Below, in pieces: positions 570 through 59,343 of a stretch of DNA of 64,000 nt. Position numbers and translations under genes: made by a program. How positions within the stretch are numbered: the stretch's first letter is position 1; the number at the start of each line of letters is the position of its first letter. Origin of the DNA: an uncultured Planctomycetia bacterium (lineage in GTDB: Bacteria; Omnitrophota; Gorgyraeia; Tantalellales; Tantalellaceae); the NCBI GenBank assembly GCA_964409365.1, contig CAYPCX010000006.1:21012-85011 (forward strand), read 5' to 3'. The notes below the pieces were generated by a model. It did not search any database, was not told where the DNA came from, and saw only the letters and a list, made by a program, of their open reading frames with translations.

Positions 570-621
570 TCTTCAAGTAACAAGTAACAAGTATCAAGTA
601 ACAAGTATCAAGTAACAAGTA

Positions 622-1287
622 TCAAGGACATTTTGCGGGGTCTTTGATCCCCATTTCCTCGAACGCTCTTTTACGGAAAAGACACGATTCGCATTTTCCG
701 CACGGTTCGTCACCGCCGGCGTAACATGACCACGTGCTCTCGAACGGAACTCCCAGCTTGATGCCGAGCTTGATTATTTCCTTCTTCGTCATGTCGATAA
801 GCGGTGCCTCAATTTTTATTTTTTCCCCTTCGACCCCGCGCTTCGTGCCGTGGCGGGCCGTTTCCTGGAAACTTTTAAAAAACACCTCCCGGCAATCGGG
901 GTAATTCGAGAAATCCATCTGCTGCGCCCCTATGAAGACCGCTTCGGCCCCGATGACCTCCGCGAAAGACACGCCATAGCTTAAAAAGATCATGTTCCGC
1001 GCCGGTACGTACGTCTCGGGTATGGACCCGCCTTCGCTTACCAGGCCCTCCGGGATAGTTTTTCCGACATCCAGCAGAGCGCTTCCCTCCCAGGGCAGCG
1101 ATATGTCAAGGACCCAGTAACTGCAGCCCGCTTTCTCGGCAACGTTCCGCGCGCAGTCGATCTCTTTCGCGGCTTTCTGCCCATAGTCAAATATGAGCAC
1201 GTGACACTCGTGGTCCTTCTTTGCCGCGTGAAGCGTGACCGCCGAATCCATCCCTCCCGACAACAGCACGACCGCTTTCTTGTTCAC
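622..1287 (-). CDS. queC: 7-cyano-7-deazaguanine synthase
   Basis: MNKKAVVLLSGGMDS PP-loop ATPase N-terminus and C-terminal Cys cluster (CGKCESC) typical of QueC. Confidence 0.9.
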   Translation of the reverse strand: MNKKAVVLLSGGMDSAVTLHAAKKDHECHVLIFDYGQKAAKEIDCARNVAEKAGCSYWVLDISLPWEGSALLDVGKTIPEGLVSEGGSIPETYVPARNMIFLSYGVSFAEVIGAEAVFIGAQQMDFSNYPDCREVFFKSFQETARHGTKRGVEGEKIKIEAPLIDMTKKEIIKLGIKLGVPFESTWSCYAGGDEPCGKCESCLFRKRAFEEMGIKDPAKCP

Positions 1288-1354
1288 CGTGGTACCCTTT
1301 TGTTAGTGTCAGAGTGTCAAAGTAAACTATGACACTTTGACACTTTCATTACTT

Positions 1355-1720
1355 TCACCCTTGTGTATACGTGGCAGACGAGGACCCGGTCTCCCACACC
1401 GTCACCTCTTTCAGTTTCAAGCCGGGCCGCCTTCTCGATATATCTTCATAGACATGCCGGGCTATGTTCTCCGATGTCGGGTTCATGTCCCTGAAACACT
1501 CCAGTTCATTAAGATGCTTATGATCAAGCTCCGCTATGCTTTCTTTGAGAAGGCCCTTCAGTTCCTTGAAATCTATCACCATACCGGTCGCGTCGAGCTT
1601 CCCGGACGACGCCACTACCTCGACCTGCCAGTTGTGCCCGTGCAGGTCCTCACACTTACCCTTGTAACCTTTCAGGTTATGGGCGCTGCTGAAATCCGAT
1701 CTTACCCGTACAGTATACAT
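1355..1720 (-). CDS. queD: 6-carboxy-5,6,7,8-tetrahydropterin synthase
   Basis: 121 aa, CEDLHGHNW zinc-binding motif of the PTPS/QueD family. Stop/start juxtaposed with kdsC. Confidence 0.85.
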   Translation of the reverse strand: MYTVRVRSDFSSAHNLKGYKGKCEDLHGHNWQVEVVASSGKLDATGMVIDFKELKGLLKESIAELDHKHLNELECFRDMNPTSENIARHVYEDISRRRPGLKLKEVTVWETGSSSATYTQG

Positions 1721-1721
1721 T

Positions 1722-2264: not shown

Positions 2265-2354
2265 GATTACTCCAATTTAGTAACCAGTTACCCGTAACCA
2301 GTTACCAGATTATCTCTTCTGGTTACTGGAAACCGGTTGCTGGTTACAACTCTT

Positions 2355-5917: not shown

Positions 5918-5978
5918 CGATTTTACCTCCGAACTTTGCCCGCTAAAAATATTATTATAAAAGGGTATATCGGCGGGT

Positions 5979-6008
5979 ATTTTAGCATGTATGTCCTCAG
6001 GATGTCAA
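5979..6008 (-). promoter_or_regulatory. sigma70-type promoter candidate for the heptose kinase gene: TTGACA-N18-TAAAAT (minus-strand sense)
   Basis: Read on the minus strand: TTGACAtcctgaggacatacatgcTAAAAT, about 55 nt upstream of the ATG at 5917. An AT-rich 160-bp spacer follows trxA. Confidence 0.5.
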
Positions 6009-6076
6009 TTTCATTACACGCCAGCGTAAATCTGACTTTTCTCAGTTTAACTTTCTGCGTTGAGATGAACTGGTCT

Positions 6077-7455: not shown

Positions 7456-7585
7456 GTTTAAGTTACAAGTTACAAATGAAAAATTAAAAATCAAAGTTAA
7501 AAGTTCAAAAGTAAAAGCTTTTGTTTGAAGAAGTTTTTTTGTCCATAATTTTTGACTCTAAATTTCAATCCTTGATTCTTAAATC

Positions 7586-11211: not shown

Positions 11212-13302
11212 TTAAATTCCCATTATCTCTACCAAAGCCTTGAACGCCTCTTCCACCTTTATCGACGAGACGCACTTACCCCTTCTCAAACATGTCGGCT
11301 TATAACAGGGGGAACACCTCATCTTTTTTCTCAGGATCCTGTGGTCCCCGGACGGAGGCACATGCAGACGGGGGTCCGTCGGGCCGAAAATGGCCACGAA
11401 AGGCGTGCCCACGGCGGAGGCGACATGCATGGGAGCGCTGTCACCCGTAAGCAGGGCGTCACAGCGCTTGATCAGGCTTACCATCTGTGAAATATCCGTT
11501 CTGCCCACGGCGTCGATCGGTTTCGCGTCGGTCTTTTTCAGGAATTCCTCCGCCCGGGACCGGTCCTCACCGGCACCCAGAAGGACGACTCTCACTCCCT
11601 TCTCCCTTGCCAGCGCCTCCGTAAGTTTTATCATGGACTGGACGGGCCAGTTCTTGGTCTTCCACCGCTGGCTCGCTGAGACGCTTATCGCCACGAGTTT
11701 CTGTCCCTCCTTGAGCCAGTTGCTTTTCAGGAACTTTTCGGCCCATTCCTCGCTTTCCCGGACGGGCCAGAGCTCAAGCCGATCATCCAGCTTGGTGATA
11801 CCCAGGAGCCCCAGGACACACGCCTGGTGTTTCACGGGCTCCATCGGTTTTTTCGGAAGGCTGATCTTCCTGTTCAGGAGAAAGCTCATCTTGCCGTTAT
11901 CGTAACCGTACCTTTCGGGCACTATGCTCAAAAAAGAAAGAAGATGGCTCCTGCGGTTGTTCTGCAGGTCTATGGTGATATCCATGTCCTCGGCGCGCAG
12001 TTTTCGCGCGAGCTTTAAGAACCCGACCCTTTTGTCCCTGCCGTCAAAATCACAGGTAATAAGTTCGTCCACGTACGGGCAGTTCTCGAGCACCTCCCTG
12101 AAACGGACATCCACCAGTACCGTTATGTTGGCGTTCGGGAACTTTTTCCTGACGGCACGGAGCGACGGGGTGCTAAGTATGATATCCCCGAGGGAACTGA
12201 TCTTGAAGATAAGTATGTTCTTCGTGTTGAGCGCGCGTTCGTAAGTCTGGAGGGTTATCTCCATGGTCTTGTTCAGGGAATAGTTCTTTTCGACGTTCTT
12301 TCTTGCCTTTTCGGCTATTTTCCTCATAAGGTCCGGGTCATTGGCATAACGAAGTATCTTATCGGCCATGTCCGAGGGGTTGACCGGCTCACACATGAGC
12401 CCCGTGACACCGTCGGTGATATTCTCTGCGACCCCGCCCACTTCGGTTGCCACAACGGGCACACCCCTGGCCTGGGCCTCGACGACAGATCGCCCGAAAG
12501 CTTCCTGCGCCCTGTTGGCGGAAACGAAAACATCGAGGCCCTTAAGCACCTCGGCCACGTCCTCGTCGCTGCTTTTATACTTGACGATCTTGTCGATCAT
12601 CAGCCGGCGCGTCGTCAATTCGATCTTTTTTATGTATTCTTCCTTCGCGGAAGCTTTGTCGCCCATCATTACTACCTCAAGCCTGGGTAACTTTCTCGAG
12701 ACGTACGAAGCGGCCTTCAAAAAATCCAGGTGCCCTTTAAGCGGAGTGAAACGCGATATCATCCCCACGCGAAAAACCTTGCCGTCGTCTTTAGGGAAAG
12801 GTATGAAAGAAAATTTTTTCAGGTCTATCCCTCTCGGTATGATGGCCATCTTCTTGGGGGGAGTGCCGAAATTGTCCTTCATGTACCTGGCCATCGTCTC
12901 GTTGGCCACGATCACTACCTTGCCCCAGCCCATTACCCGGCTGATAAGGTGTCTTTTGTACTGGCCATGGGCCGTGGTTATAAAAGTCCTGCCTGTTCCC
13001 CTCGCGGCGAAGTACCCCGTGACCGCGGGCACCCTGCTGCGCGCGTGGACGATATGGATATTCTCCTTTTTTATGATCTTTTTGAGCGCAAAATAACAGT
13101 AGATCATCACCAGGGGGTTTTTACGGTCCACGGGGAGCTTATAATGGCGCGCTCCTATCGCAGCGAGGTTCTTTTCGAACCTCCCTCCTCCCGAGACGAC
13201 CACGGCCTTGTGGCCGTTAAGCGTAAGATACCGCGCGACCTCCACGGTGCCTTTTTCGACGCCGCCTATGTTCAATCTTGGGACAAGCTGAAGTATGTTC
13301 AT
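11212..13302 (-). CDS. fusion protein: N-terminal GT4 glycosyltransferase plus C-terminal GT9 heptosyltransferase (696 aa)
   Basis: N-terminal half is GT4-like (MNILQLVPRLNIGGVEKGT...). C-terminal half begins ILIFKISSLGDIILSTPSLRAVRKKFP and continues through GT9 motifs. Confidence 0.7.
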   Translation of the reverse strand: MNILQLVPRLNIGGVEKGTVEVARYLTLNGHKAVVVSGGGRFEKNLAAIGARHYKLPVDRKNPLVMIYCYFALKKIIKKENIHIVHARSRVPAVTGYFAARGTGRTFITTAHGQYKRHLISRVMGWGKVVIVANETMARYMKDNFGTPPKKMAIIPRGIDLKKFSFIPFPKDDGKVFRVGMISRFTPLKGHLDFLKAASYVSRKLPRLEVVMMGDKASAKEEYIKKIELTTRRLMIDKIVKYKSSDEDVAEVLKGLDVFVSANRAQEAFGRSVVEAQARGVPVVATEVGGVAENITDGVTGLMCEPVNPSDMADKILRYANDPDLMRKIAEKARKNVEKNYSLNKTMEITLQTYERALNTKNILIFKISSLGDIILSTPSLRAVRKKFPNANITVLVDVRFREVLENCPYVDELITCDFDGRDKRVGFLKLARKLRAEDMDITIDLQNNRRSHLLSFLSIVPERYGYDNGKMSFLLNRKISLPKKPMEPVKHQACVLGLLGITKLDDRLELWPVRESEEWAEKFLKSNWLKEGQKLVAISVSASQRWKTKNWPVQSMIKLTEALAREKGVRVVLLGAGEDRSRAEEFLKKTDAKPIDAVGRTDISQMVSLIKRCDALLTGDSAPMHVASAVGTPFVAIFGPTDPRLHVPPSGDHRILRKKMRCSPCYKPTCLRRGKCVSSIKVEEAFKALVEIMGI

Positions 13303-13392
13303 AATATTCAGGTTTCAAGTTTCAGGTTTCAAGTCTCAGGGCCATGGATAAAGACATGCTTTTTCTTCCGCCTGACACCTGACACCCGACAC

Positions 13393-15339
13393 CTAAAATA
13401 ATCTGTACAATTTCTCGTATATTCTCCGGTTATCTTCAGGTACGGTAAATTCCGCTCTTCTTTCAAGGACGTCTGTCAACCGGTCCGGTATCTCTTCCGG
13501 TTTCACTACTTTAAGGTACTTTTTCCGGTCGAGATCGTCGACGAATTTTTCGTATTTGGTCGGCCCGGCGACCTTCTTGTCGGGCATGAACACCAACACG
13601 GGTTTCCCGGACGAAACCGCCTCGGAGACCATGGATATGCTCTCTCCGGAGACCATTATCACGTCGCTTGCCGCCATTATCTTTTCCACCGTGTGATCGT
13701 CCGTATCGTCCCTGCCTGAAACGTACATCGCGCACCTGGGATAGGACCCTAACATCTCCTTCACCGCTGCCTCGGCGCCCTCGGAAGTCCTCCTGGAAGT
13801 GGTCATGTAGAGATACCCGTCCCTTGCTTCGCAGGAACGCCGGACATTCTCCCCGAGGGATCTCAAAAGATCATTCCCGAACGTGTAATCAGGATTGTCC
13901 CCGCCGAGAAGAAGCCCCAGGCGGAATTTGCCCGGGAACGCCTTCCCCTCGCCTATCTTTTCCCTGAATGACGCCAACTCGCCGGAACTGATAAGGTTGG
14001 GGGCAAGGTCCGTAAAGATCAGGTTGTCCTTCGGCTTTCCTTTTACCTTATGCATGTCATGCCGCGGGATGATAACGAGATCGAACTTTTTGCGGCTCAG
14101 CGGGCCCGGGTCCATTACCGTGACGTTACGCGCGTAGTTCTCGATCTTCAGCATCCTGCTGACACCGAACAGTGAAGAGCCGCAGCTGACGATGATATCA
14201 GCGTACCGGTTGACCGCATTATCATAACTTTCCGCATCAAGCGCCCATCTCAAAAAGCCCATCCGGCCCTGGAAGTTATTGACGAAGAATGGGCTGAGCG
14301 CGTTAAAGACCGTTTTTCGAGCTTTGTTCCTGAAATTTATGCGAACGACTTCCGCTTCAATATATTCGGGCGCGTACCCTTCATCCTCCCGGAAGCGCCT
14401 CATCTGCTTCACGACGGCAAGAGATTGTTTGAGGTGCCCCTTCTTGCCGTCATCGAGCACCATGACCTTCCTGAGAGGGGTCACTTTCCATCTCTTGTGC
14501 ACCCAGAACCACTGATCGGGATGGTCGCGGACATGCTTTTCCAGCAACCTGCTGTATTCCTCCATGTAGGGGATTATGTCATCATCCTCGCCTATTTTCA
14601 TGGGCTGTTCCAGCACAAGCTCATGATACGGGCCTTTTTTCCTGTGTATGAACGCCGGCAGTACCCACGCCCCGCTCTTCTGGGCGAACCGGTACGGGCC
14701 CGTAACAGTGGATGCCGGGCGGCCGAAAAAATCTATGAGTTCGCCGCTGGAGCCGGCGTTCTGGTCCGCGAGAAGACCCAGGCTCTTGCCCTCATGCAGC
14801 ACGCGGAAGATCTTCTTTATATCAAGCCCCTTGCGTATCACGACGTTGCCTTTGGCCTCGCGCATCCCGTTAAAAAGCTCATTGACCCTTTGCATCTTCT
14901 GGTCCCTCGCGATGATATGCATCGGGAACCCTTTTATCACGCTGGCCGCTATGCTCAGTTCCCAGCTCCCGAAATGGGCGGAAACCAGTATCATCCCGTT
15001 CGGGTTCTTCGCGGCTTCCACTATTCTTTCAAAATTGATGATATCCACGTATTTTTCCACGAACCGGTCGTCCACCTTGGTAAGCAGCATTATGTCCGCG
15101 ATAGTACGGCCCAGGTGTTTGTACACCTTTTTCGTCAGGCGCTTGATCTCGGCGGGGCTCTTTTCCGAGCTGAACGCCGCTTTCAGGTTGGCATACGTTA
15201 CCCTCTGCCTTTTCCCGCTCAGGACGTACGCGAGTGACCCCAGGCCGCTCGCAAGCCACAGGCTGAACCGCATCGGCAAAAAATGCAGTATCCGGTTCAG
15301 CGCTTTAACCGCGTAAGACGCTATCAAGTCCAGAAACAA
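13393..15339 (-). CDS. fusion protein: lipid A secondary (lauroyl/myristoyl) acyltransferase LpxL/HtrB-like N-terminus plus ELM1/DUF1022-like GT-B C-terminal domain (648 aa)
   Basis: N-terminal about 300 aa matches the LPLAT LpxL family. The C-terminal domain starts VMVLDDGKKGHLKQSLAV and contains TTSRRT, which resembles the DUF1022/ELM1 family. Confidence 0.6.
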   Translation of the reverse strand: MFLDLIASYAVKALNRILHFLPMRFSLWLASGLGSLAYVLSGKRQRVTYANLKAAFSSEKSPAEIKRLTKKVYKHLGRTIADIMLLTKVDDRFVEKYVDIINFERIVEAAKNPNGMILVSAHFGSWELSIAASVIKGFPMHIIARDQKMQRVNELFNGMREAKGNVVIRKGLDIKKIFRVLHEGKSLGLLADQNAGSSGELIDFFGRPASTVTGPYRFAQKSGAWVLPAFIHRKKGPYHELVLEQPMKIGEDDDIIPYMEEYSRLLEKHVRDHPDQWFWVHKRWKVTPLRKVMVLDDGKKGHLKQSLAVVKQMRRFREDEGYAPEYIEAEVVRINFRNKARKTVFNALSPFFVNNFQGRMGFLRWALDAESYDNAVNRYADIIVSCGSSLFGVSRMLKIENYARNVTVMDPGPLSRKKFDLVIIPRHDMHKVKGKPKDNLIFTDLAPNLISSGELASFREKIGEGKAFPGKFRLGLLLGGDNPDYTFGNDLLRSLGENVRRSCEARDGYLYMTTSRRTSEGAEAAVKEMLGSYPRCAMYVSGRDDTDDHTVEKIMAASDVIMVSGESISMVSEAVSSGKPVLVFMPDKKVAGPTKYEKFVDDLDRKKYLKVVKPEEIPDRLTDVLERRAEFTVPEDNRRIYEKLYRLF

Positions 15340-16342: not shown

Positions 16343-16353
16343 TGCCAGTAAAA

Positions 16354-16420
16354 ATATATTCTGGGGACATGTTTGGGCACCTACATAACGTCTACGACAA
16401 ACGTGTCCCCAGAACCTCAG
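16354..16420. repeat. conserved intergenic hairpin element, family A (TCTGGGGACA...TGTCCCCAGA), single copy, lpxK/waaA junction
   Basis: atatattCTGGGGACATGTTTG-loop-CAAACGTGTCCCCAGaacctcag. Its stem differs from other copies by paired substitutions. The waaA stop codon (TAG, 16392-16394) lies in the loop. Confidence 0.85.
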
Positions 16421-20679: not shown

Positions 20680-20695
20680 ATAGTTCCGCTCCTTT

Positions 20696-21835
20696 TTAGA
20701 GTATTGAGTTTTGAGTATCACGTATCGAGTATCGGGATCCGGCCTCGGCCTTCACAAAACCCTTGATCTCCATCCTGAGAAGCTCCTCTGCCAATTCGCT
20801 CAGATCGATATTCGTAAGTTCCGAAATAAGATCTATATGTGCCGGGCCTTTCTCCAGCGCATCAAGGACCTTAAGCCCGTTTTTCCCGATCTTTCGCCGG
20901 TGTTCCCTGCGGTTTTCTTCGGTTTCACCCTTACCCCTGAGACCCGAGACCTGGAACCTGCGACCCGGATCAAGGTCCTCCAGAATATCATCGGCGCTCA
21001 TCACAAGCTTCGCGCCGTTCTGTATAAGCTCGTTAGTGCCTCCTGATGTAAGGGAATCCGCCCTTCCCGGAACGGCGAAGACCTCTCTTCCCTGGTCGAG
21101 AGCGAGATCCACGGTTATCATGGCCCCGCTTTTCCTTGTCGCTTCCACTACGACCACGCCTTTCGCCATGCCGCTTATTATCCTGTTCCTTCTCGGAAAA
21201 TTACCTCTTTCAGGAAACGTATCCGAAGTGTATTCGGTCAGTACCGCCCCGCTCTCGCATATGGCGGAAAAAAGCTTCCCGGACCCGGGAGGATAGACGT
21301 GCCCGAACCCGCTTCCCATGACCGCGACCGTACGCCCTCCGGCCCTGAGCGCGCCCCTGTGCGCGGCCGAGTCTATGCCTCTTGCCATGCCGCTTATAAC
21401 GGTAACGCCTTTCACGGCAAGAGCGAAGGCAAGCTGTTCCGCCATCTGAAGGCCGTACAACGAACAGCGTCTTGACCCTACAATGGCCACCGCGTTCGCC
21501 TCATCCCCCTGGAGCTTCCCTTTACAAAAAAGGACCGCCGGAGGATCGTATATATCCATGAGGACCTCAGGATATCCCCGTGTGCCGTAACACAGCAGGG
21601 TGATACCTTCTTTTTCGATATATTCCAGTTCCTCCGCTAATTTACGGGAATCCCTTGCCGCTTTTACCGCGGCCGTATCGGAAAAACGTCCGCCCGTCAG
21701 CTCCGCCAGGCGACGCGCCGGCATCGTGAACACCTCCTCGGTGTCATCTACGTCCCTGAGGATCTTAACTATGCTTCTGGCGCCGAGCCCCTTCGTAAGA
21801 GCGAGCGCCATTATGTCACGATCAACCTTATCCAA
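20696..21835 (-). CDS. dprA: DNA processing protein A
   Basis: DprA/Smf Rossmann-like domain (GIDSAAHRGAL...). Confidence 0.85.
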   Translation of the reverse strand: MDKVDRDIMALALTKGLGARSIVKILRDVDDTEEVFTMPARRLAELTGGRFSDTAAVKAARDSRKLAEELEYIEKEGITLLCYGTRGYPEVLMDIYDPPAVLFCKGKLQGDEANAVAIVGSRRCSLYGLQMAEQLAFALAVKGVTVISGMARGIDSAAHRGALRAGGRTVAVMGSGFGHVYPPGSGKLFSAICESGAVLTEYTSDTFPERGNFPRRNRIISGMAKGVVVVEATRKSGAMITVDLALDQGREVFAVPGRADSLTSGGTNELIQNGAKLVMSADDILEDLDPGRRFQVSGLRGKGETEENRREHRRKIGKNGLKVLDALEKGPAHIDLISELTNIDLSELAEELLRMEIKGFVKAEAGSRYSIRDTQNSIL

Positions 21836-23358: not shown

Positions 23359-23361
23359 AAT

Positions 23362-27991: not shown

Positions 27992-28188
27992 GTCATTTCC
28001 TTTTCTCAGAAGACAGAAGTCAGATGTCAGAAATCAGATATTAGGTGTTTGGTGTTAGATATTAGTTATTAGTTTTTAGTTCTTAGTCGTACAACTCATA
28101 ACTCATAACTAACAACTCAACACTTGATACTTGTTACTTTATCCTTTATCCTTGTTACTTGTCTCTGTCCTCTGTCATCTGTCCTCTA
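27992..28188. repeat. about 28-unit degenerate heptamer tandem array filling the ilvC-leuA spacer; the two halves are roughly complementary
   Basis: cagaaga cagaagt cagatgt cagaaat cagatat taggtgt ttggtgt ... gttactt gtctctg tcctctg tcatctg. The units drift gradually; the 5' half is purine-rich and the 3' half pyrimidine-rich. Confidence 0.85.
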
Positions 28189-31915: not shown

Positions 31916-31924
31916 AATATATCA

Positions 31925-32117
31925 AAACTCCTCGCCTGACTTGCGACTTGTGACTTGCGACCTGCGACTTGCGACCTGCGACTTGTGATACACACACATA
32001 TATAGACACCTTTTTTCATTTTTTCTTGAAAATAACTTAAAACTTGGGGCTTGCAACTTGGCGCCTGAGACTTGCGACCTGCGACTTGAGACCTGAGACC
32101 TGCGACCTGCGACTTGA
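31925..32117. repeat. heptamer tandem array (gacttgc/gacctgc units) with an AT-rich centre, between alr and the four-helix-bundle gene
   Basis: gacttgc gacttgt gacttgc gacctgc ... cttgcga cctgcga cttgaga cctgaga. The track ORF 31846..32121 is a translation of these repeats. Confidence 0.8.
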
Positions 32118-33239: not shown

Positions 33240-33292
33240 GTATATCTCTGTATTAGTTTCCGGTAACCAGATATCTGGTTACTGGTTACTGG

Positions 33293-33967
33293 TTACTTAT
33301 TAATATTACATTCCTTGGAATGCAAATACAAGGGTTCCAGGAACTCGGGGTCATCTGTCCCCGAACCTGATCTTTCCAGGCCCAGACGGCCTATGTCGGC
33401 CGCTCTGGGATGCCAGTCGATATCTTCGGAAAATCCTGCCAGATCACAATTTCCCAGCTTTTCCCTGTATTTCGGGACCCCGTTACCGAAAAACAGTACC
33501 CGCTCTTCCAGCCCGGCCAGGAGCTCTTCGATCGTCACGAGAAGATAGTCCGTCTTTCTGCTCGCAAATCCATCCGAACGTTCATAAATACAAGAATAGA
33601 CCTTCCCTTTATGCGCGTCCAAAAGCGGAGCTACCAGTTTCTTTTCCTCCCCATGAACGTTCATGACCATGGCATCCATACTGGGAACACCCAGTACCTT
33701 GACCGGAAGGACCGAGGCCAATCCCTTTACCGTAGCGGCCGCGATACGCAGCCCCGTAAAGGAACCCGGCCCCAGCCCCACGCAAACCAGTTCGATGACC
33801 TCTTTTCGCCACCCGGCTTCTTCCAGCAGGTTCTTTATGACCGGCACCAGTATCTCGCTGTGACGGATCCCCACATCCTCGTGGAACGACGCCCTTATTT
33901 CCCCTCCGTCGAGGCACGCCACGCTCAAATATCTGGTGGAAGTGTCAAACGCAAGTGCTCTCTTCAT
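33293..33967 (-). CDS. tsaB: tRNA threonylcarbamoyladenosine biosynthesis protein TsaB (YeaZ)
   Basis: Kae1/YeaZ fold N-terminus (LAFDTST...). 224 aa. Confidence 0.8.
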   Translation of the reverse strand: MKRALAFDTSTRYLSVACLDGGEIRASFHEDVGIRHSEILVPVIKNLLEEAGWRKEVIELVCVGLGPGSFTGLRIAAATVKGLASVLPVKVLGVPSMDAMVMNVHGEEKKLVAPLLDAHKGKVYSCIYERSDGFASRKTDYLLVTIEELLAGLEERVLFFGNGVPKYREKLGNCDLAGFSEDIDWHPRAADIGRLGLERSGSGTDDPEFLEPLYLHSKECNINK

Positions 33968-34434
33968 AATAACTTATCGATAAGATCCGCGAACCTTCCG
34001 TTATTCGAACGGAACTCGAACTTTCTTTCGGTACTATAGCCGTGAAAGATATCTATCTCGAGATAGTCCTCGGGCAGGACGTCCCGTATCTTTTCGGCCC
34101 ATTCGACCACGGTGATGCCATCACCGTAGAAATACTTTTCATAATCAAGGGTGTCGCAGAAACTTTTCTCTTCCAGGCGATAAACGTCAAAATGATACAG
34201 TTTCTTCACGCCCGGATATTCCTTGAGAACGACAAAAGACGGGCTGTTCACGTGGAGGTAATCTTCGACCCCCAGACCTTTCGCCAGTCCTTTAACGAAA
34301 ACCGTCTTTCCCGTACCCAGGTCTCCGACCAGGGCCACAAGATCCCCTTCGCGAAGTTCTTTTGCCACGTTAGCCCCTAATTCGATCGTCTCTTCCGGCG
34401 AAAATGTCCTCATCTCCTTCATCACGCCTGACAC
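33964..34434 (-). CDS. tsaE: tRNA t6A biosynthesis ATPase TsaE (YjeE)
   Basis: GDLGTGKT P-loop. 156 aa. Confidence 0.8.
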   Translation of the reverse strand: MSGVMKEMRTFSPEETIELGANVAKELREGDLVALVGDLGTGKTVFVKGLAKGLGVEDYLHVNSPSFVVLKEYPGVKKLYHFDVYRLEEKSFCDTLDYEKYFYGDGITVVEWAEKIRDVLPEDYLEIDIFHGYSTERKFEFRSNNGRFADLIDKLL

Positions 34435-34455
34435 CTGAGACCTGAAACCTGAAAC

Positions 34456-35352
34456 CTAAACATGCCTGTATCCCTCCATCTTCAACTTGCTGAGGCGCGC
34501 TTCCTTTTCTATCAGTACGCGCTCGTTCTTCCTGCCTGTTATTTCGCCTATGACAAAATACTCAAGGGCTTTCGCGCGGGGCTTCATGTCCCGGAAAAGC
34601 CTTCTCGCCTCTTTAACTCCCATGGTAAAAAGAAGCTCGAAACTCTCCCCGTAATAAAGCGCCTCCCTGAGAGAAAGCCCCTTTGAAAGAGGGATGGCGT
34701 CAGCGTATAAAACGCATCCCGCGCGGCTGAGAGAGCATATCCTGCCGATATCGGGCGCTATGCCGTCGGAAGTGTCTATCATGGCGTTTATCCGGTAATT
34801 TTCCGAGAGAAAACGCGCCTCGACAAGACGCGGGATAAAATCGAGATGTTCTTTTTTGCCGTTCCTTACGGGCCCCGTCACGAGGATAAGGTCGCCTTTC
34901 TCCGCGCCGGAGCGCGTTAAAAGACGTTCCTTTTCCACGATCCCCAGGATGGAAACGTCTATCACCAGTTTCCCCGAACGGACGGTATCCCCGCCTATGA
35001 CCTTGACGCCGTACTCCCTGCATATGCCGAAGATCCCGTCGTATATCTTATCGACTGCCGTCCGCGCCATGCCGCGCGGCACCCCGATACTGACGGTAAC
35101 GTACTTCGGGAGACCTCCCATCGCCGCTATGTCGCTTATGTTCACCGCGACGGCTTTCCTGCCTATTTTCGCATACTCCGTATCCCCGGTCCGGAAATGA
35201 GTGCCGGAGACGAGCATGTCGGCCGCCCATAAAAGATACTCTCTCTTCGTGTGCTCAAGGACAGCGCAATCGTCGCCTATGCCCAGTTTTACGCCTTTGC
35301 CGGGCCTTCCCGCGCGCTTGCGTATCTTTTCAATTAATTCCAACTCTCTCAT
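34456..35352 (-). CDS. thiL: thiamine-monophosphate kinase
   Basis: AIR-synthase-related fold. Start taken at MRELELIEK (35352). The track's extension reads into the repeat. Confidence 0.8.
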   Translation of the reverse strand: MRELELIEKIRKRAGRPGKGVKLGIGDDCAVLEHTKREYLLWAADMLVSGTHFRTGDTEYAKIGRKAVAVNISDIAAMGGLPKYVTVSIGVPRGMARTAVDKIYDGIFGICREYGVKVIGGDTVRSGKLVIDVSILGIVEKERLLTRSGAEKGDLILVTGPVRNGKKEHLDFIPRLVEARFLSENYRINAMIDTSDGIAPDIGRICSLSRAGCVLYADAIPLSKGLSLREALYYGESFELLFTMGVKEARRLFRDMKPRAKALEYFVIGEITGRKNERVLIEKEARLSKLKMEGYRHV

Positions 35353-35356
35353 AATA

Positions 35357-37638: not shown

Positions 37639-37737
37639 ATCTTCATAACCTCGTCGTCATCCTTGCACCCTGACACCGTCTTCTGTCTTCTGTCTTCTGT
37701 CCTCTGTCTTCTGTCTTCTGTCCTCTGAAACAAGCCG
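37639..37737. repeat. heptamer array (tctgtct/tctgtcc, about 8 near-perfect units)
   Basis: tctgtct tctgtct tctgtcc tctgtct tctgtct tctgtcc tctgaaa. Confidence 0.85.
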
Positions 37738-39114: not shown

Positions 39115-39130
39115 GTTAACGCCTCATAGG

Positions 39131-39172
39131 TTTCAGGTTTCAGGTCTCAGGTTTCAGGTTTCAGGTTTCAGA
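39131..39172. repeat. heptamer microsatellite (caggttt/caggtct, 6 copies) between ogt and the tatD-rSAM gene
   Basis: ggtttcaggtttcaggtctcaggtttcaggtttcaggtttcag. Confidence 0.85.
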
Positions 39173-41861: not shown

Positions 41862-42012
41862 GTTAACTCCCCATCTATCTGTATCAGAAGTCAGATGTCA
41901 GAAGACAGAAATCAGATATTAGGTGTTTGCTGTTGGAGGACACTATAATCTTTTTTCTGTCCTCTGTTCTCTGTCTTCTGTTTTCTGTCCTCTGTTCTCT
42001 GAGACTTTTCGT
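41862..42012. repeat. heptamer array sharing a 5' module with the 27992-28188 array
   Basis: cagaagtcagatgtcagaagacagaaatcagatattaggtgtttgctgtt ... tctgtcctctgttctctgtcttctgttttctgtcctctgttctctgagac. Confidence 0.8.
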
Positions 42013-43603: not shown

Positions 43604-45060
43604 ACCGGTCCCTCCGGGGTATCTTCGACGACCACTCCCATATCCGCGAGCCGTCCGCGTATCCTGTCGGCCCCGTCGTAATCTTTTTCCTTTCTGGCCG
43701 TCTCCCTCTCCGCTACCAGGCGCTCTATCTGATCCGTGTCCTCTTCTTCAACCTGAACCGGCCTAAGGGACAGGCCGAGTATATCCGCGAAGCGCAGGAT
43801 ATAATTCTTCACCGCGCCGGCAAGATACGCTTTGCCCCCGGCGTCCAATCCTTCATCAGCGAGGGAATCGTTACCGGTCCTCACCGCCTCGAAGAGAACC
43901 GAGAGGGCCATAGGCGTATTAAAATCGTCGTTCATCGCTTCGTCGAACTTTTCCTGCAGGCCGTTGACCGTCTCCTGGGCTTTTTGCAAGATATCCGCGT
44001 CCCGCGGGGCTTTTTTTCCGGCCGTCTCTTTCATCAGCCGGTCGACCTTGCCGAAGAAGATCATCACCCTTTCCTTGGAACGCTTCGCCTCTTCTATTTT
44101 CGCGTCGGTATAATCCATCGGGCTGCGGTAATGGCTGTTCAGGAACGCCAGTTTCAAGAGGTCCGGGTCTTTGTGCCTTTCAAGAAAATCGGAAATCGTG
44201 ATGTAGTTACCGAGAGATTTTGACATCTTTTCGCCGCCGACGCTCAAAAGGCCGTTATGTATCCAGTAATTCGCGAAATCCCGGCCGGTAGCGGCTTCCG
44301 CCTGGGCTATCTCGTTCTCGTGATGCGGGAAAATAAGGTCGAGCCCGCCCCCGTGAATATCGAACTGCGCGCCCAGGAGGTTCGTGCTCATCACCGAACA
44401 CTCTATATGCCACCCGGGCCTCCCGTCTCCCCAGGGACTCTCCCAGGAAGGCTCGTAAGGCTTGGCTTCCTTCCATAACGCGAAATCCAGCGGATGCCGT
44501 TTTTTCTCGTCCACGTCTATACGCACGCCGTGCATCATCTCGTCCTTGTCCTGTTTTGACAGTTTGCCGTAATCGGGAAAACTTTCCACGCTGAAGTAGA
44601 CGTCCCCTCCGGCGACATAGGCGAAACCTTTGTCGATCAAGGTCTTTATGAACATTATCATCTGGTCTATGGCCTCGGTGGCCTTCGGCTCGACGACAGG
44701 CGGTTTTATCCCCAGGACATCCATCTGCTGGTGATATATGTCAAGATAGCGGACGGCGACCTCGCTGACCCTCTCCTTAAGCCTGCCGGATGACGCGTTC
44801 TCCCCTATTTCCGTGAGCTCCTCGGTGGCCTTCTTTATTATTTTGTCGTCCACGTCGGTCACGTTCCTCACGAACAGCACCTCGAACCCGGCGTACTCTA
44901 AATATCTCCTGATGATATCGAAGACATAAGCGCTCCTGGCATGCCCGATGTGAGGCACGTCATAAACGGTGGGCCCGCAGACATACATCCTTACATTATC
45001 CCGTTCTATAGGCCGGAACTCTTCCTTTTTCCTCGTAAGTGTATTGTATATCGTTATCAT
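43588..45060 (-). CDS. cysS: cysteinyl-tRNA synthetase
   Basis: HIGH (PHIGHARS) and KMSKS motifs. Start taken at MITIYNTLTRKKEEF (45060). Confidence 0.85.
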   Translation of the reverse strand: MITIYNTLTRKKEEFRPIERDNVRMYVCGPTVYDVPHIGHARSAYVFDIIRRYLEYAGFEVLFVRNVTDVDDKIIKKATEELTEIGENASSGRLKERVSEVAVRYLDIYHQQMDVLGIKPPVVEPKATEAIDQMIMFIKTLIDKGFAYVAGGDVYFSVESFPDYGKLSKQDKDEMMHGVRIDVDEKKRHPLDFALWKEAKPYEPSWESPWGDGRPGWHIECSVMSTNLLGAQFDIHGGGLDLIFPHHENEIAQAEAATGRDFANYWIHNGLLSVGGEKMSKSLGNYITISDFLERHKDPDLLKLAFLNSHYRSPMDYTDAKIEEAKRSKERVMIFFGKVDRLMKETAGKKAPRDADILQKAQETVNGLQEKFDEAMNDDFNTPMALSVLFEAVRTGNDSLADEGLDAGGKAYLAGAVKNYILRFADILGLSLRPVQVEEEDTDQIERLVAERETARKEKDYDGADRIRGRLADMGVVVEDTPEGPVWRRS

Positions 45061-45112
45061 ATCCACTATCCAGAATCGAACTTCAAGTTTGTAACCAGTA
45101 ACCAGTGAAAAA

Positions 45113-45190
45113 AGCATAGCTCAAAGGGCATAGCGCACAGCGTAAAACTGTAACACTTTGCTCTTTGCGCTTAACTCTTTGCAATCAAAG
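45113..45190. repeat. 78-bp repeat, left copy of an inverted pair bracketing cysE-ispF-ispD
   Basis: Its reverse complement matches 47134-47212 at about 72/78 positions. Built from gcatagc and ctttgcN heptamers. Confidence 0.85.
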
Positions 45191-45208
45191 ACCCAACACT
45201 CACCGGCG

Positions 45209-47092: not shown

Positions 47093-47133
47093 CTCTATAT
47101 TCTTGATACTCGATACTTGCTACAATGTTGAAT

Positions 47134-47212
47134 CTTTGATTGCAAAGAGCTAAGCGCATAGAGCAAAGAATTACAGTTTTACGCTGTACGCTATGCCCTT
47201 TGCGCTATGCGT
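47134..47212. repeat. 78-bp repeat, right copy (inverted relative to 45113-45190)
   Basis: ctttgattgcaaagagctaagcgcatagagcaaagaattacagttttacgctgtacgctatgccctttgcgctatgcg. Confidence 0.85.
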
Positions 47213-47259
47213 TTTCACTGGTACTTGTTACTTTTTCCTTGTTCCTTGTTACTTGTTAC

Positions 47260-48288
47260 TCACTGATGCCTTTTTTGCTCGGGCCTCTCGGGCCTTTCAA
47301 CAAGATTGGCGAATATCATCCTGCCGGCGGAGGTCTGCAGCACGCTCGTGACGGAAACGTTCACGGTCCTTCCTATACACTTTCTCGCGTTATCGACCAC
47401 TATCATGGTCCCGTCGTCCATGAAGGCCACGCCCTGGTTCCGCTCTTTTCCCTCTTTCTTGATGTAAGCCGTCATCTGTTCTCCCGGGAACACTACCGGG
47501 CGCAGCGCGTTGGCCAGGTCGTTGATGTTCAGGACCGTTACCCCTTCAAGTTTGGCCACCTTGTTGAGGTTGAAATCGTTCGTCAGGACCCGGCAATCGA
47601 GTATCCTTGCCAGGCGTATGAGCTTCGCGTCGACCTCCTTGACGTCCGGGAGGTTCTCCTCATGTATTATCACTTCCGTCTGGGGCATGCCTTTCAGGCG
47701 GTTCAGCATGTCCAGCCCCCTGCGTCCCCTGTTACGCTTGGTGTCATCGGAACTGTCCGCTATCTGGTGCAGCTCCTGCAGGACGAACCTCGGGATGACG
47801 AGCCTGCCCTCGAGGAAACCCGTCTCGCAGATACCGGCGATCCTGCCGTCGATTATCACGCTGGTATCCAGAAGAAGCAGCTGGTCCTTCTGGTCCTCGC
47901 GAGAAAACCGCACGTACGGTATCACCAGGTTGAACTCGTCCTTGCCTTTTAGCGCGATGACCATGCCCAGATAGCAGAAGACAAGCGTGAACGCTATCTG
48001 CAGCACGGAATAGATCACCTCATCCATGGGTATCAGGCGGACTATCAGGGTGACCATCCACGCCATGAAAAAACCGAAAACCAGGCCGAAAGCCGCCGCC
48101 GACAAGTTACGCAGCGACACGTGCTTCAACTTGACCTCCAAAAGTATCAGGAGCAACGCGCAGACGAACCCGGCACCGGCGCCGATCATGGCGCCCTCCC
48201 TTGAAAGATCTGTCAAGAGAGACCCGACGTAATACCCGCATACTACGCTCAGGATCAGAAAAAATGCCCTTATGAACCTTTCAGTCAT
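47260..48288 (-). CDS. yacL: PIN/TRAM domain membrane protein (YacL-like)
   Basis: N-terminal TM helices, central PIN (LLLDTSVIIDGR) and C-terminal TRAM domain. Confidence 0.75.
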   Translation of the reverse strand: MTERFIRAFFLILSVVCGYYVGSLLTDLSREGAMIGAGAGFVCALLLILLEVKLKHVSLRNLSAAAFGLVFGFFMAWMVTLIVRLIPMDEVIYSVLQIAFTLVFCYLGMVIALKGKDEFNLVIPYVRFSREDQKDQLLLLDTSVIIDGRIAGICETGFLEGRLVIPRFVLQELHQIADSSDDTKRNRGRRGLDMLNRLKGMPQTEVIIHEENLPDVKEVDAKLIRLARILDCRVLTNDFNLNKVAKLEGVTVLNINDLANALRPVVFPGEQMTAYIKKEGKERNQGVAFMDDGTMIVVDNARKCIGRTVNVSVTSVLQTSAGRMIFANLVERPERPEQKRHQ

Positions 48289-56325: not shown

Positions 56326-56420
56326 ATTGTCCTCGTAAAACGCTTGTTTCAGAAAACAGGAATCAGACGTCAGATTTCATACAATTCTGTCCTCTGTCTT
56401 CTGCCATCTGTCCTCTGTCT

Positions 56421-57293
56421 TTAATACTCTACGCCTTCCGTTTCCGTGACCTTCCTGAAATCCGCCAGGAGCTGTTTATATATCGGGCCCGGCTTGCCGG
56501 TGCCTATGGGCTTGTCGTCCATCTTGATCACGGGTATTATCTCGGCGGCGGTGCCGGTCAGGAAGCATTCGTCCGCTTCGAAGAGTTCTTCGGGATACAT
56601 CTTTTTGTATTCCGTCTCTATCCCCCTTTTCCGCGCCAGGCCTATGACGAGGTCCTGCGTCACCCCTTCAAGAGCGCCGATCTCCGACGGCGGGGTATAG
56701 AGCCTGTTATCTTTGACCAGAAAGATATTGTCGCCGGTACATTCGGCGATGTACCCGTCAAGGTCCAGCATCACGGCCTCCGGCGTCCCCGCGTCTATCG
56801 CGTCTATCCTCCCGAGGATGTTATTCAGGTAATTCAGCGATTTTATCCTCGGATCGACCGTTATGGGGTGATTGCGCCTGGTCTTCGCTATAGTGATCGG
56901 CAGGCCGCTCTTATAGAGCTCCGGGGGATACAGATCTATCTTGTCCGTGATTATGAAGACCGTGGGCTTTTCGCACTTGCGGGGGTCAAGCCCCAGATCT
57001 CCGATGCCTCTGGTGACGACGACGCGTATGTACGCGTTGTCCAACTCGTTCATTTTCAGCGTCTCGACTATTTTTTCCTCGAAATCCCACTTCGTGATGG
57101 GGATCTCCAATCTTATGGCGTCGGCGCTTTCGTACAAACGGTTGATATGCTCCTCCAGCCGGAAGACCTTCCTGTTGTACGACCGTATGCCTTCGAAGAC
57201 ACCGTCCCCGTAAAGAAGGCCGTGGTCGAACACGGAGACCTTCGCGTCTTTTTTTTCCACGAACTCGCCGTCAATATATATCTTAAGCTCCAT
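56421..57293 (-). CDS. ilvE: branched-chain amino acid aminotransferase (class IV)
   Basis: 290 aa class IV PLP aminotransferase. Confidence 0.8.
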   Translation of the reverse strand: MELKIYIDGEFVEKKDAKVSVFDHGLLYGDGVFEGIRSYNRKVFRLEEHINRLYESADAIRLEIPITKWDFEEKIVETLKMNELDNAYIRVVVTRGIGDLGLDPRKCEKPTVFIITDKIDLYPPELYKSGLPITIAKTRRNHPITVDPRIKSLNYLNNILGRIDAIDAGTPEAVMLDLDGYIAECTGDNIFLVKDNRLYTPPSEIGALEGVTQDLVIGLARKRGIETEYKKMYPEELFEADECFLTGTAAEIIPVIKMDDKPIGTGKPGPIYKQLLADFRKVTETEGVEY

Positions 57294-58011
57294 GTACTAC
57301 CCTTTCAGTTTGCATATATGAACTTGCGGACATCTTTTCAAGCGTCCCGTCCTTCATCAGGTATTCCGTATGATAAAAATCCCTGTTGAGGCCCTGGTGC
57401 GAGACCACTACGATGCTCATGCCGTTTTCCTCGCTGATCCTGTAGATAAGATCGTATATCCGGACGCTCATCTCGGAATCCAGGTTACCGGTCGGCTCGT
57501 CACAGAACAGTATATCAGGCGAATTGACCAGCGCCCTGGCTATGGCCGTCCTCTGCGCTTCCCCTCCCGAAAGCTGGGAAGGCCTGTGCTTTGAACGTTC
57601 TTCCATGTTCACGGTCCTGAGAAGCTCCATGGCCCTGCCCTTGATCTCCCTTCCCGATGATCTTCCCTTTATCATGGCCGGGAGCATGACGTTCTCCAGT
57701 ACGTTCAGTTCCGGCAGAAGATAATAGAACTGGAAGACGAAACCGAAGCTCGTATTCCGCAGGAAACTCCTTCTTCTGTCCGATAACTCATATATGTCCC
57801 TGTCGCGAAATGTCACACTGCCTTTGGTCGGACGGCTAAGGGCTCCCAGGACCTGCATAAGGGTGGATTTACCAGCCCCGGAAGGCCCGTGTATGTACAC
57901 CCTTTCACCTTTGCGGACGGTGAGATCAACATCTTTCACGGCATGGACCTTATCGGATCCCTGTTTGAACGTCTTGTCTAAATTTTCTACGGTCAGCATC
58001 TCGATCCTCAA
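57283..58011 (-). CDS. lolD: ABC transporter ATP-binding protein, LolD/MacB type
   Basis: Walker A GPSGAGKST and LSGGEAQR signature. Paired with an FtsX-type permease. Confidence 0.7.
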   Translation of the reverse strand: MRIEMLTVENLDKTFKQGSDKVHAVKDVDLTVRKGERVYIHGPSGAGKSTLMQVLGALSRPTKGSVTFRDRDIYELSDRRRSFLRNTSFGFVFQFYYLLPELNVLENVMLPAMIKGRSSGREIKGRAMELLRTVNMEERSKHRPSQLSGGEAQRTAIARALVNSPDILFCDEPTGNLDSEMSVRIYDLIYRISEENGMSIVVVSHQGLNRDFYHTEYLMKDGTLEKMSASSYMQTERVVHGA

Positions 58012-58036
58012 TACTCACTACTTTATACTCGATACT

Positions 58037-59248
58037 TTACTCGTATCTTATCGCTTCCACCGGGTCCAGCCGGGACGCCTTCCATGCCGGATAGATCCCC
58101 GCCGCCAGCGTGAGCAGCATCGCGACGGAGATTATCGCCGTAACGTCAGCCGTGCTGACATACACCGGTATCTCGCTGAAATAATATATATCGCTCGGGA
58201 ACATCGCTACTCCCGTCCACCGTTCCAGAAGGTCCGCTATGACGTTGACCCTGTGAGCCAGAAAGACCCCGCAGAACCCGCCGGCGGCTATCCCCAGAAG
58301 ACCTATGATGATCCCCTCCAGAAAGAACACGGCCCTTACCCCGAACGAATTGGCGCCGATGGCCTTGAGTATACCGATATCCCTCGTCTTCTCCATGACC
58401 ATCATGATCAGCGAACTTGATATATTGAAACAGGCCACCATGATTATCAGGGCCAGTATGATGAACATCATCTTTTTTTCCAGGGAAAGCGCCGTCACCA
58501 GATTGCGGTCGAGGTCCATCCAGCTCTTCACTATATAGGGATACCCCAGTATGACCTGCAGGCGCGCCTTCACCCCGGCGACCTCCATTTCATCCTTCAC
58601 TTTCAGGCCGATACCGGAAACGGTATCGCCGGAGCGGAAAAGCTCGCGCGCCGTATCTATCCCGACGATGGCTATGTTGGAATCGTAGTCGTATCTTCCC
58701 GAAGTAAAGCTGCCGATGACCTCGAGCTGGGCTTTCTCCATATCGAGGGCCGAGTACGGGAGCAGCAGTTCCACCTTGTCCCCTACCGATATCCTTTCGC
58801 TTTTCATCAGTTCGCTGCCGAGTACTATCGTTTTGCCTTTTAAGTCCTTGCCGGTCACCTGTGCGTATTCTATTACCCGGCTCACTTCCGATTCCTTTTC
58901 GGGATCTATCCCCTTAAGGAGGACCCCCGAGACGTTGTCGTCCGTCTTCAGGACGGCCTGGCCGGTAACAAAAGGGGTGGCGCTGACCACATCGGGCAGC
59001 GCTTCCATCCTCGCTATCAGTTCTTCGTGCCCGCTGATCCCGCCTTCCCTTATGATGACCGCGTGCGAATACGTGCCTATTATCTTGTCCTTCACTTCAC
59101 GATCGAACCCGTTCATTATCGACATCACGATGATGAGAGAAGCGACGCCGAGACCCACGCCGAGGACAGAGATCACCCCTACGAGGGATATCATCCCTTC
59201 TTTTCTCCTGGCCAGAAAATATCTCAAACTAAGGAATATCGTCCACAT
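58037..59248 (-). CDS. ABC transporter permease, FtsX/MacB-like (LolC/E-like)
   Basis: 403 aa. N-terminal TM, large periplasmic domain and C-terminal FtsX 3-TM bundle. Confidence 0.65.
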   Translation of the reverse strand: MWTIFLSLRYFLARRKEGMISLVGVISVLGVGLGVASLIIVMSIMNGFDREVKDKIIGTYSHAVIIREGGISGHEELIARMEALPDVVSATPFVTGQAVLKTDDNVSGVLLKGIDPEKESEVSRVIEYAQVTGKDLKGKTIVLGSELMKSERISVGDKVELLLPYSALDMEKAQLEVIGSFTSGRYDYDSNIAIVGIDTARELFRSGDTVSGIGLKVKDEMEVAGVKARLQVILGYPYIVKSWMDLDRNLVTALSLEKKMMFIILALIIMVACFNISSSLIMMVMEKTRDIGILKAIGANSFGVRAVFFLEGIIIGLLGIAAGGFCGVFLAHRVNVIADLLERWTGVAMFPSDIYYFSEIPVYVSTADVTAIISVAMLLTLAAGIYPAWKASRLDPVEAIRYE

Positions 59249-59343
59249 GTTTTTTCAGGTTTAACACTTCTTTTCAGAAGACAGAGGTCAGATGCCAGAA
59301 TTCTGTTTTCTGCTTTCTGTCTTCTGTTTTTCAAAACCACATA

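Follow-up and report, generated by a model that had tools for sequence, protein, structure and literature searches.

Heptamer arrays, many of them paired as hairpins, in the intergenic spacers of an Omnitrophota chromosome

A seven-nucleotide period in the spacers

We analysed a 64 kb stretch of bacterial chromosome of ~53% GC (contig CAYPCX010000006.1, positions 21,012 to 85,011; the whole of this stretch is called the window below), whose intergenic spacers had been noticed to parse into tandem heptamers that drift gradually along each array. This heptamer pattern in the spacers is confirmed, and it is very strong. We favour the explanation that the arrays are slippage-driven heptamer simple sequence repeats (SSRs) and dispersed palindromic elements, which are tolerated only outside open reading frames (ORFs) and occur at very high density in this chromosome of the phylum Candidatus Omnitrophota. 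New here are the phylum of the host, the array density, the measured extent of hairpin organisation, a rule that the purine-rich arm comes first, and an on/off contrast between related lineages.

All three formal checks return the predicted period. In the autocorrelation of the 29 intergenic segments (2626 nt), the match rate at lag 7 is 0.430, compared with 0.268 +/- 0.008 in shuffled sequence (z=19.5), and further peaks stand at lag 14 (z=17.6), lag 21 (z=9.6) and lag 28 (z=8.2). Coding DNA displays 3-nt periodicity only, with a rate of 0.244 at lag 7. Fourier power at period 7 is 2.17 in the spacers, against 0.73 +/- 0.09 after shuffling (z=16.4), while coding DNA gives 0.73 at period 7 and 1.95 at period 3; the peak is thus found in intergenic DNA only, as expected. 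Tandem Repeats Finder (TRF) reports 29 period-7 rows in the window, and in 26 of these the unit is repeated head to tail three times or more, compared with a mean of 0.85 across 20 shuffles and none in 50 kb of E. coli K-12.

The statement that nearly every spacer is such an array holds for many spacers, but is an overstatement: arrays are present in 15 of the 25 spacers of at least 40 nt and cover 876 of 2670 spacer bases (33%). From the other side, 876 of the 1015 array bases fall in listed spacers. The remaining spacers of the window hold promoter-like sequence (5918-6076, 31422-31513 and 60850-61014) or a separate 49-nt element, family A. Among the 17 intervals first listed as heptamers, 16 are recovered by TRF at period 7, 14, 21 or 28, and one, 1288-1354, turns out to be built of 8-nt units.

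Distribution among Omnitrophota and viral contigs

The LeuA relatives of the window in one-genome-per-species GTDB contigs are almost all labelled Candidatus Omnitrophota, the top match being 85% identical. We collected 80 Omnitrophota loci (L001-L080, 1.24 Mb) and counted arrays in them with TRF at a score of at least 40. The signal is not confined to the window: the pooled spacers of these loci have autocorrelation peaks at lags 7, 14 and 21, and the TRF counts are 118 for period 7, 62 for period 14 and 21 for period 21, compared with 9 for period 8 and 12 for period 10. No unit length other than 7 and its multiples is prominent in spacers. The distribution is patchy, with strong signals in L001, L007, L009, L014, L030, L035 and L040, among others. 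No arrays are present in L004, L005, L006 and L010, whose LeuA proteins are similarly close to that of the window. In these relatives the spacers are shorter, and some contain ordinary palindromes or, at the same junctions, ordinary hairpins. In the literature, we found no mention of such repeats in Omnitrophota.

Several viral contigs from IMG/VR (within a second set, L088-L134) also carry very dense arrays of many units, namely L128 (IMGVR_UViG_3300006566_000272), L126, L104, L122, L121 and L102. In L128, 19 arrays lie in 11.5 kb among phage structural genes, and its tape-measure protein (1321 aa) is ~30% identical to those of Flavobacterium phages. Some of the units in these contigs resemble cyanobacterial or Bacteroidota heptamers (ACTAACC, CAACTGA). 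Dense arrays between phage genes indicate that phage or prophage DNA bears the same kind of array. A phage origin of the window itself was rejected, as it has no megablast match and its genes are housekeeping genes.

Hairpins, arm polarity and placement

Across the window and the 80 loci, at least two tandem complementary units occur within 150 nt of 97 of the 220 arrays (44%), compared with 6 of 220 when the units are shuffled. Predicted stems in the window reach -20 to -50 kcal/mol, several with one mismatch per heptamer, and 73% of the array-bearing co-directional spacers fold better than -0.2 kcal/mol per nt. The copy numbers of the two arms are uncorrelated (rho=0.05), indicating that they vary independently and speaking against a coordinated expansion of both arms, which we rejected. 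Growth of the hairpin from the loop outwards was also rejected, as unit purity has no gradient by loop distance.

The paired arms have a preferred polarity. Within inverted pairs from the same set of genomes, the 5' arm is the purine-rich one in 28 cases against 5 (p=6.6e-5; 16 genomes against 2). Together with the pairing counts, this bears out the predicted layout of a purine-rich 5' half followed by a complementary, pyrimidine-rich 3' half. In an independent set, IMG/VR contigs fetched with (GACAGAR)3, the purine-first rule holds for 24 pairs against 0 (14 contigs against 0), including 10 against 0 among pairs whose units are unrelated to the search pattern. An arm order of this kind is unchanged by reverse complementation, and so cannot be put down to the direction of transcription or replication. 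One-arm arrays are also purine-rich on the sense strand (0.63, compared with a background of 0.54).

Essentially all of the roughly 62 genes over the 64 kb lie on the minus strand. Read on the sense strand, a typical array starts at or just past the upstream stop codon and stops 10-25 nt before the next start codon, leaving the Shine-Dalgarno sequence free. Arrays sit within functionally coherent gene strings, such as queD-queC-queE and ilvBNC-leuA, and occur in 96 of 393 co-directional spacers, 5 of 48 divergent and 3 of 33 convergent ones. No array hairpin is followed by a T-run (U-tract) on the sense strand, and we therefore rejected canonical intrinsic terminators as an identity for the arrays. 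Given this placement between stop codon and Shine-Dalgarno sequence, in coherent gene strings and without U-tracts, the arrays are probably co-transcribed in polycistronic RNAs, where they would be at most intercistronic stem-loops. We also considered a "universal stop cassette", in which a tandem 7-nt unit, 7 and 3 being coprime, would place a stop codon in all three frames. This was rejected: sense stops occur in 76 of 184 arrays and antisense stops in 71, with 80 expected.

Copy-number change, turnover and dispersal

For several arrays, TRF gives a higher purity at period 14 than at period 7; in the array at 574-626, for instance, the values are 97% and 89%, respectively. The same array differs between assemblies of the same organism. 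A JGI metagenome contig (3300017989 Ga0180432_10000135) is 100% identical to the window, and the ENA assembly k141_1412183 aligns with this JGI contig over 59.9 kb with no substitutions and exactly two differences. In the first, the ENA assembly lacks one 14-nt double unit of the array at 574-626; in the second, it has two fewer copies (98 nt) of the 49-nt repeat of family A. The 14-nt difference is direct evidence for slippage-type change, supported here by a single event. More distant comparisons are limited by the available sequences: in the protein database, nothing falls between 77% and 99% identity, the next Alr homologue standing at 76%. Among the loci, pairwise nucleotide identity does not go above 89%, which leaves no strains at 90-99% for indel spectra.

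At 85-88% nucleotide identity, orthologous spacers are already unrelated, with arrays in one locus and none in the other. At the thiL|tsaE, tsaB|alr and ilvC|leuA junctions, the window, L001 and L007 all have arrays, with unrelated units. Within a genome, units are shared far more often than between genomes: an identical unit in different spacers is found in 7.5% of within-genome comparisons vs 0.29% of those between genomes, and in 19.3% vs 3.5% when one mismatch is allowed.

Whole elements recur as well. In L014, [AGGGTCC]n-loop-[CTGGACC]n is present in four to five spacers; in L040, TCGCATA-type arms surround a conserved loop in three copies; and in L079, TCGTAAC arms flank a conserved inner hairpin, which is present in both orientations. 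Four spacers of the window (27992, 41862, 56326 and 59249) bear [GACAGAR]n-loop-[TCTGNNN]n. The window also shares ordered modules (D3, D4 and D12) among its spacers, and 28006-28059 and 41884-41937 have their ordered unit variants in common (89% over 54 nt). Such a shared order of variants points to copying between loci, not to independent slippage. A single motif common to all units (CAG/CTG-like) was considered and rejected: it fits many units of the window and fails in L007 and L009.

Origin of the arrays

On the explanation that we favour, replication slippage would both create and reshape the arrays, adding or removing one or two units (7 or 14 nt) at a time. The one polymorphism shows such a step directly, and the higher-order period 14 agrees with it. 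Point mutation would decay the arrays, giving the drift along each of them. They would survive only in spacers, because a 7-nt indel within an ORF shifts the frame. About half consist of an array and its inverted complement, forming palindromic elements of 50-200 nt that would fold as long stem-loops. As unit families are genome-specific and common to many spacers, whole elements or array segments may have been copied between spacers, either by recombination or in the manner of REPINs (hairpins of paired repetitive extragenic palindromic, or REP, sequences) and MITEs (miniature inverted-repeat transposable elements). Any role of the arrays would then be limited to that of intercistronic stem-loops, such as RNase III sites or barriers to exonucleases, and we found no evidence that selection maintains them in such a role.

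Several points weigh against this explanation. The 7-nt ruler is not explained by anything tested, and that the arrays are transcribed we infer from their position only. The purine-first rule and the purine bias of one-arm arrays suggest a constraint beyond neutral slippage. Only one heptamer copy-number polymorphism was seen, and it comes from short-read metagenome assemblies that are possibly from related samples. Finally, the precomputed Pfam annotations, which cover window positions 1-59,933, include no Y1/RAYT (REP-associated tyrosine transposase) or other transposase.

It is possible, if doubtful, that the arrays are instead selected as intercistronic RNA stem-loops that act in mRNA processing, stability or partial termination, with gain and loss of heptamers tuning the expression of the neighbouring genes. 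Such a role fits the position of the arrays between stop codon and Shine-Dalgarno sequence in gene strings, the strength of the predicted stems and the higher share of arrays in co-directional spacers. It also fits the purine-first polarity, by which the RNA has a pyrimidine-rich 3' arm trailing the hairpin, an arrangement like that of A-tract/U-tract terminators, and the relative rarity of ATG in sense units (8, vs 17 in antisense). Array-free relatives have ordinary hairpins in some of the same spacers. There are precedents too: Haemophilus influenzae combines a heptamer SSR with an RNase III-targeted element in a 5' untranslated region (5'-UTR) (PMC12721329), and heptamer repeats in Nostoc have been loosely linked with effects on recF/recO expression. 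However, the antisense folds are as stable as the sense folds (means of -31.3 kcal/mol for sense and -31.6 for antisense, Wilcoxon p=0.91, n=96; window-only totals -378 vs -368), hence there is no G-U signature of RNA-level selection. Moreover, arm lengths are uncorrelated, about half of the arrays have no partner arm, the presence of an array at a given junction is not conserved among relatives, and the 7-nt unit is left unexplained.

We regard as rather unlikely a second alternative, that the arrays are REPIN- or MITE-like miniature mobile elements moved by a transposase encoded elsewhere, with heptamer arms as the recognised ends and slippage as a secondary process. The genome-specific families spread over many spacers would be expected of such elements, as would the loops conserved between copies, the two orientations in L079 and the ordered unit variants common to window spacers, such as module D4. 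The inverted doublets, forming hairpins in extragenic space, recall the organisation of REPINs (PMC3116915), and the patchy on/off pattern among relatives is what gain and loss of a mobilising gene would produce. Set against this are the absence of a RAYT/Y1 or other transposase from the annotations of window 1-59,933, the lack of any recognised conserved terminal motif or target-site duplication, and the fact that we saw no insertion or excision polymorphism. The arms also differ from one another in the number and sequence of their units, unlike the invariant 16-mers of REPINs.

A broader proposal appears to us unlikely: that heptamer-armed hairpins make up a distinct, cross-phylum class, self-propagating or functional, with a dedicated 7-nt ruler (a property of the replisome or of repair, or a binding or mobilising protein) and the purine-first arrangement as its signature.

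Very unlikely, in our judgement, are tandem sites for a protein with a ~7-nt footprint on RNA or single-stranded DNA, such as the cold-shock or S1-type OB folds proposed for TAACTGA repeats. The strict 7-nt length across many unit sequences, the purine-rich sense strand of one-arm arrays and the candidate binders discussed for other heptamer repeats (PMC4679880) are in its favour. Yet there are many unrelated units per genome, units drift freely inside arrays, half of the arrays would be locked in a duplex with their complement, and no candidate gene was identified. The original prediction had left the mechanism between heptamer-specific repeat generation and selection for repeated 7-nt RNA motifs, such as the footprint of an RNA-binding protein. 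The former gains from the observations that only period 7 and its multiples stand out and that the one polymorphism is a 14-nt step; a single footprint of this kind is not supported, because units differ among spacers, are wholly replaced among related genomes, and come with no sense/antisense folding asymmetry. Chance or an assembly artefact, in favour of which nothing was found, can be dismissed on z-scores of ~16-20 against shuffles, on four independent assemblies that are identical across arrays, and on the same trait in dozens of independent metagenome-assembled genomes.

Relation to known repeats

The original prediction knew of no described bacterial feature like this one, which was wrong: heptanucleotide tandem repeats that cluster in intergenic DNA have been described as a class. 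Short tandemly repeated repetitive sequences (STRR) were reportedly first described in 1990, by Mazel, and the units of STRR1-3 in heterocystous cyanobacteria are said to be CCCCAGT, TTGGTCA and CAACAGT. For Calothrix PCC 7601, a paper on Xanthomonas GGGAATC repeats relates that three tandemly repeated heptanucleotides were reported. As far as these accounts go, STRR of Calothrix and Nostoc/Anabaena resemble the present arrays in having head-to-tail 7-nt units, a non-coding location, several lineage-specific families per genome and drifting variants. Complementary arrays can also share a spacer, as at Nostoc hupS (ttgtcag x3, ttgttag x2, ccactgactactgac; PMC2408588) and in Nostoc Hept_L (TTTTGAA) and Hept_R (TTCAAAA), whose heptamers are loosely tied to recF and recO expression. 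STRR differ in phylum and units, and for the present arrays inverted pairing is frequent and the purine-first polarity has been measured. Because the host belongs to Candidatus Omnitrophota and the units are different, we call the arrays STRR-like, not STRR. They fit best among the known heptanucleotide repeats of STRR-like type, as a new member of unusual density that largely takes the form of palindromic dispersed elements.

According to PMC4679880 and PMC4692102, the survey of Mrázek et al. (2007) showed that in most prokaryotic genomes no long SSRs are more abundant than heptanucleotides; its authors proposed an origin by slippage of a polymerase that contacts ~7 nt. In these summaries, those repeats are like ours in the dominance of heptanucleotides, the intergenic location, the scatter over the phylogeny and the proposed slippage origin. 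The survey predates Omnitrophota genomes, however, and the two summaries describe neither a hairpin organisation nor dispersed families.

Other heptamer repeats share some of the properties of the present arrays. TAACTGA direct repeats, found in Beggiatoaceae, Cyanobacteria and Bacteroidetes (MacGregor 2015, PMC4679880), form spacer arrays just upstream of start codons, including those of essential operons, and have a patchy phylogeny. Unlike the many genome-specific and often inversely paired units of Omnitrophota, they consist of one unit across phyla, with 2-6 copies per set, almost all direct (1 indirect set/170). The Xanthomonas GGGAATC and Nostoc GGGGAYT repeats (Rehm 2015, PMC4692102) are intergenic arrays with some inverted pairs, whose length and sequence differ widely between close species at the same junctions. 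They are G-rich and form G-quadruplexes, whereas most Omnitrophota units are not G-rich. The Nostoc chromosome has 38 plus-strand and 51 minus-strand GGGGAYT repeats, as counted from the legend of Fig. 2C in PMC4692102. The density reported here (29 arrays/64 kb, 33% of spacer bases) is much above these 89 GGGGAYT sets in Nostoc and the 169 TAACTGA sets in BOGUAY.

REP sequences, bacterial interspersed mosaic elements (BIMEs) and REPINs (Bertels & Rainey 2011, PMC3116915) are likewise palindromic doublets with a hairpin fold, specific to a genome and scattered over its extragenic DNA, also inside operons. For dispersed hairpin doublets of this genome-specific kind, REPINs are the nearest model. 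They are not tandem heptamers: their 16-mer cores are invariant, while the Omnitrophota arms are drifting heptamers of variable length. REPINs are also tied to a RAYT gene, and none is annotated by Pfam in window 1-59,933. The Geobacter metallireducens elements (PMC2700814) are multicopy and contain 4-5 tandem heptanucleotides with a unit, MTYCTGA, that resembles TCTGNNN, but they have a fixed copy number and occupy a few dozen sites, some inside genes. The heptamer SSRs of phase variation (hmw, neuO) lie in the promoter, 5'-UTR or ORF of surface or virulence genes, where copy number switches expression. Unlike such contingency loci, the arrays described here flank housekeeping genes (que, ilv/leu, tsa, alr, metG, clpC).

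Arrays of the window

Copy numbers and units below are from TRF, and energies are predicted folding free energies in kcal/mol. The que genes have two arrays. In the queC-queE spacer (570..626), a one-arm array of CAAGTAA/CAAGTAT (7.6 copies) ends ~6 nt before the queE start codon. Between queD and queC (1288..1354), an inverted pair of 8-nt units, AGTGTCAA x2.4 and ACTTTGAC x2.6, forms a hairpin with one mismatch per unit (-20.9).

Most of the other hairpins are heptameric. Inverted GTAACCA and TGGTTAC arrays pair at 2265..2354 (period 14 in TRF; -36.9). The spacer at 7456..7585 has degenerate, AT-rich heptamers of the AAGTTAA type (75% matches) and a partly complementary upstream arm (-17.2). 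At 13303..13394, TTCAGGT/TTCAAGT x4.6 and CCTGACA x3.4 are imperfectly complementary, giving a hairpin with one mismatch per heptamer (-28.6). In the tsaB-alr spacer (33240..33297), CTGGTTA x3.3 (100% matches) and its inverted partner form a hairpin (-15.3). CTTTGCT x3.9 and related units have a complementary arm at 45118..45208 (-30.6), which is also related to 47130-47210. The spacer at 47093..47260 (family D12, -33.3) holds CGCTATG x3.3, with a complementary partner, and TACTTGT x5.6; it has a 38-nt module in common with 28125-28162.

The elements of the GACAGAR/TCTGNNN family are hairpins at 41862..42012 (sense strand [GACAGAR]n - loop - [TCTGNNN]n; family D4, -42.0), at 56326..56420 (family D3, -23.6) and at 59249..59343 (families D3 and D4, -26.1). 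The 197-nt composite spacer between ilvC and leuA (27992..28188; families D3, D4 and D12, -49.9) consists of six successive drifting arrays, TCAGAAG, AGATATT, TTAGTTA, AACTCAT, ACTTGAT and CTCTGTC, whose outer and inner parts pair. Its modules recur in the spacers at 41862 and 47219.

One-arm arrays are found at 34427..34461 (CCTGAAA x5.1), at 37639..37737 (GTCTTCT x7.1, 93% matches, family D3; GACAGAA on the sense strand) and at 39115..39172 (AGGTTTC x6.3, 94% matches, family D8), the last beginning at the stop codon of the upstream gene. Weak one-arm arrays are GAGTATC x5.1 at 20695..20740, upstream of topA (TRF score 37), and CTCAATA x4.3 at 57995..58039 (TRF score 32-44). Two direct, not inverted, arrays of GACTTGC/GACCTGC (6.9 and 7.1 copies, family D2) lie ~70 nt apart at 31916..32117.

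The arrays also affect gene calls. A 91-codon ORF at 31846-32121, which runs through the 31916..32117 spacer, is produced by heptamer arrays and was taken as spurious. Starts of longest ORFs are over-extended by arrays at topA (18583-20721; 712 aa vs 698 aa in the public annotation) and cysS (43588-45117; 509 vs 490 aa); the publicly called topA start is downstream of the 20695..20740 array. Next to the direct arrays, a PF05635 gene (23S rRNA intervening-sequence / four-helix-bundle; 31514-31915, minus strand) sits between alr and ilvB, where L001, L007 and L009 have a spacer only. Its last ~13 codons fall in a heptamer-like array (31522-31553). A link between this gene and the arrays was rejected, as a homologue occurs in only 1 of the 80 loci (L057, 58% identity).

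Other repeats and genes of the window

Family A is a separate dispersed repeat, a terminator-like hairpin GGTTCTGGGGACACGTCTG ... CAGACGTGTCCCCAGAA followed by TATATTTTTA, at 16343-16430, 23350-23485, 35345-35530 and 63010-63145. Its left arm and loop are tandemly duplicated as 49-nt units, with 2.8 perfect copies at 35383-35521. Unlike the array hairpins, those of family A precede U-tracts and resemble terminators. The module length had been read as 7x7 of the same periodicity. However, the 49-mer has 8/49 matches at lag 7 and no internal 7-nt period, so that the arithmetic is a coincidence. Palindromes in L029 have a TGTCCCC...GGGGACA core similar to that of family A. Another dispersed palindrome, ACATCGGGTGT(N)ACACCCGATGTATAA, is present in two spacers of the window (24624-24658 and 60970-61014). 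The spacer before the gene at 59344-60849 has a 10-nt tandem repeat, TATACAGGTT (60918-60967; ~5 copies, 73% matches), just upstream of a promoter-like TTGACA-N17-TATAAT.

The gene content is that of a housekeeping region, with lipid A and lipopolysaccharide-core glycosyltransferases, topA, leuA, ilvB, metG, cysS, clpC and ligA, to which public annotations add queCDEF, ilvNC, tsaBE, alr, mcsAB, mlaDEF and ispDF. Fused enzymes include TatD-radical SAM (37738-39114), lipid A acyltransferase-ELM1 (13393-15339) and GT4-GT9 (11212-13302). GC skew is negative (-0.07 to -0.20) in all 2-kb bins of the window, and AT skew in all but one. We found no tRNAs in the window, and no match to Rfam 15 at or above the gathering score.

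Significance

Omnitrophota are ultra-small bacteria with compact genomes, and it is therefore unexpected that one third of the spacer DNA should consist of repeat arrays. For annotation, the arrays are a source of spurious ORFs and over-extended start codons. Their very high density provides many arrays per genome for analysis, and the on/off contrast between lineages of similar LeuA identity means that a comparison of gene content could reveal the determinant, be it mismatch repair status, a polymerase variant or a transposase. Heptanucleotides have been reported as the commonest long SSR in bacteria since 2007, according to later summaries of that survey. If the arrays did belong to a distinct class with its own 7-nt ruler, the same on/off distribution could be used to find the responsible gene, and this would address the question "why heptamers?", which has stood since the description of STRR, reportedly in 1990, and the SSR survey of 2007.

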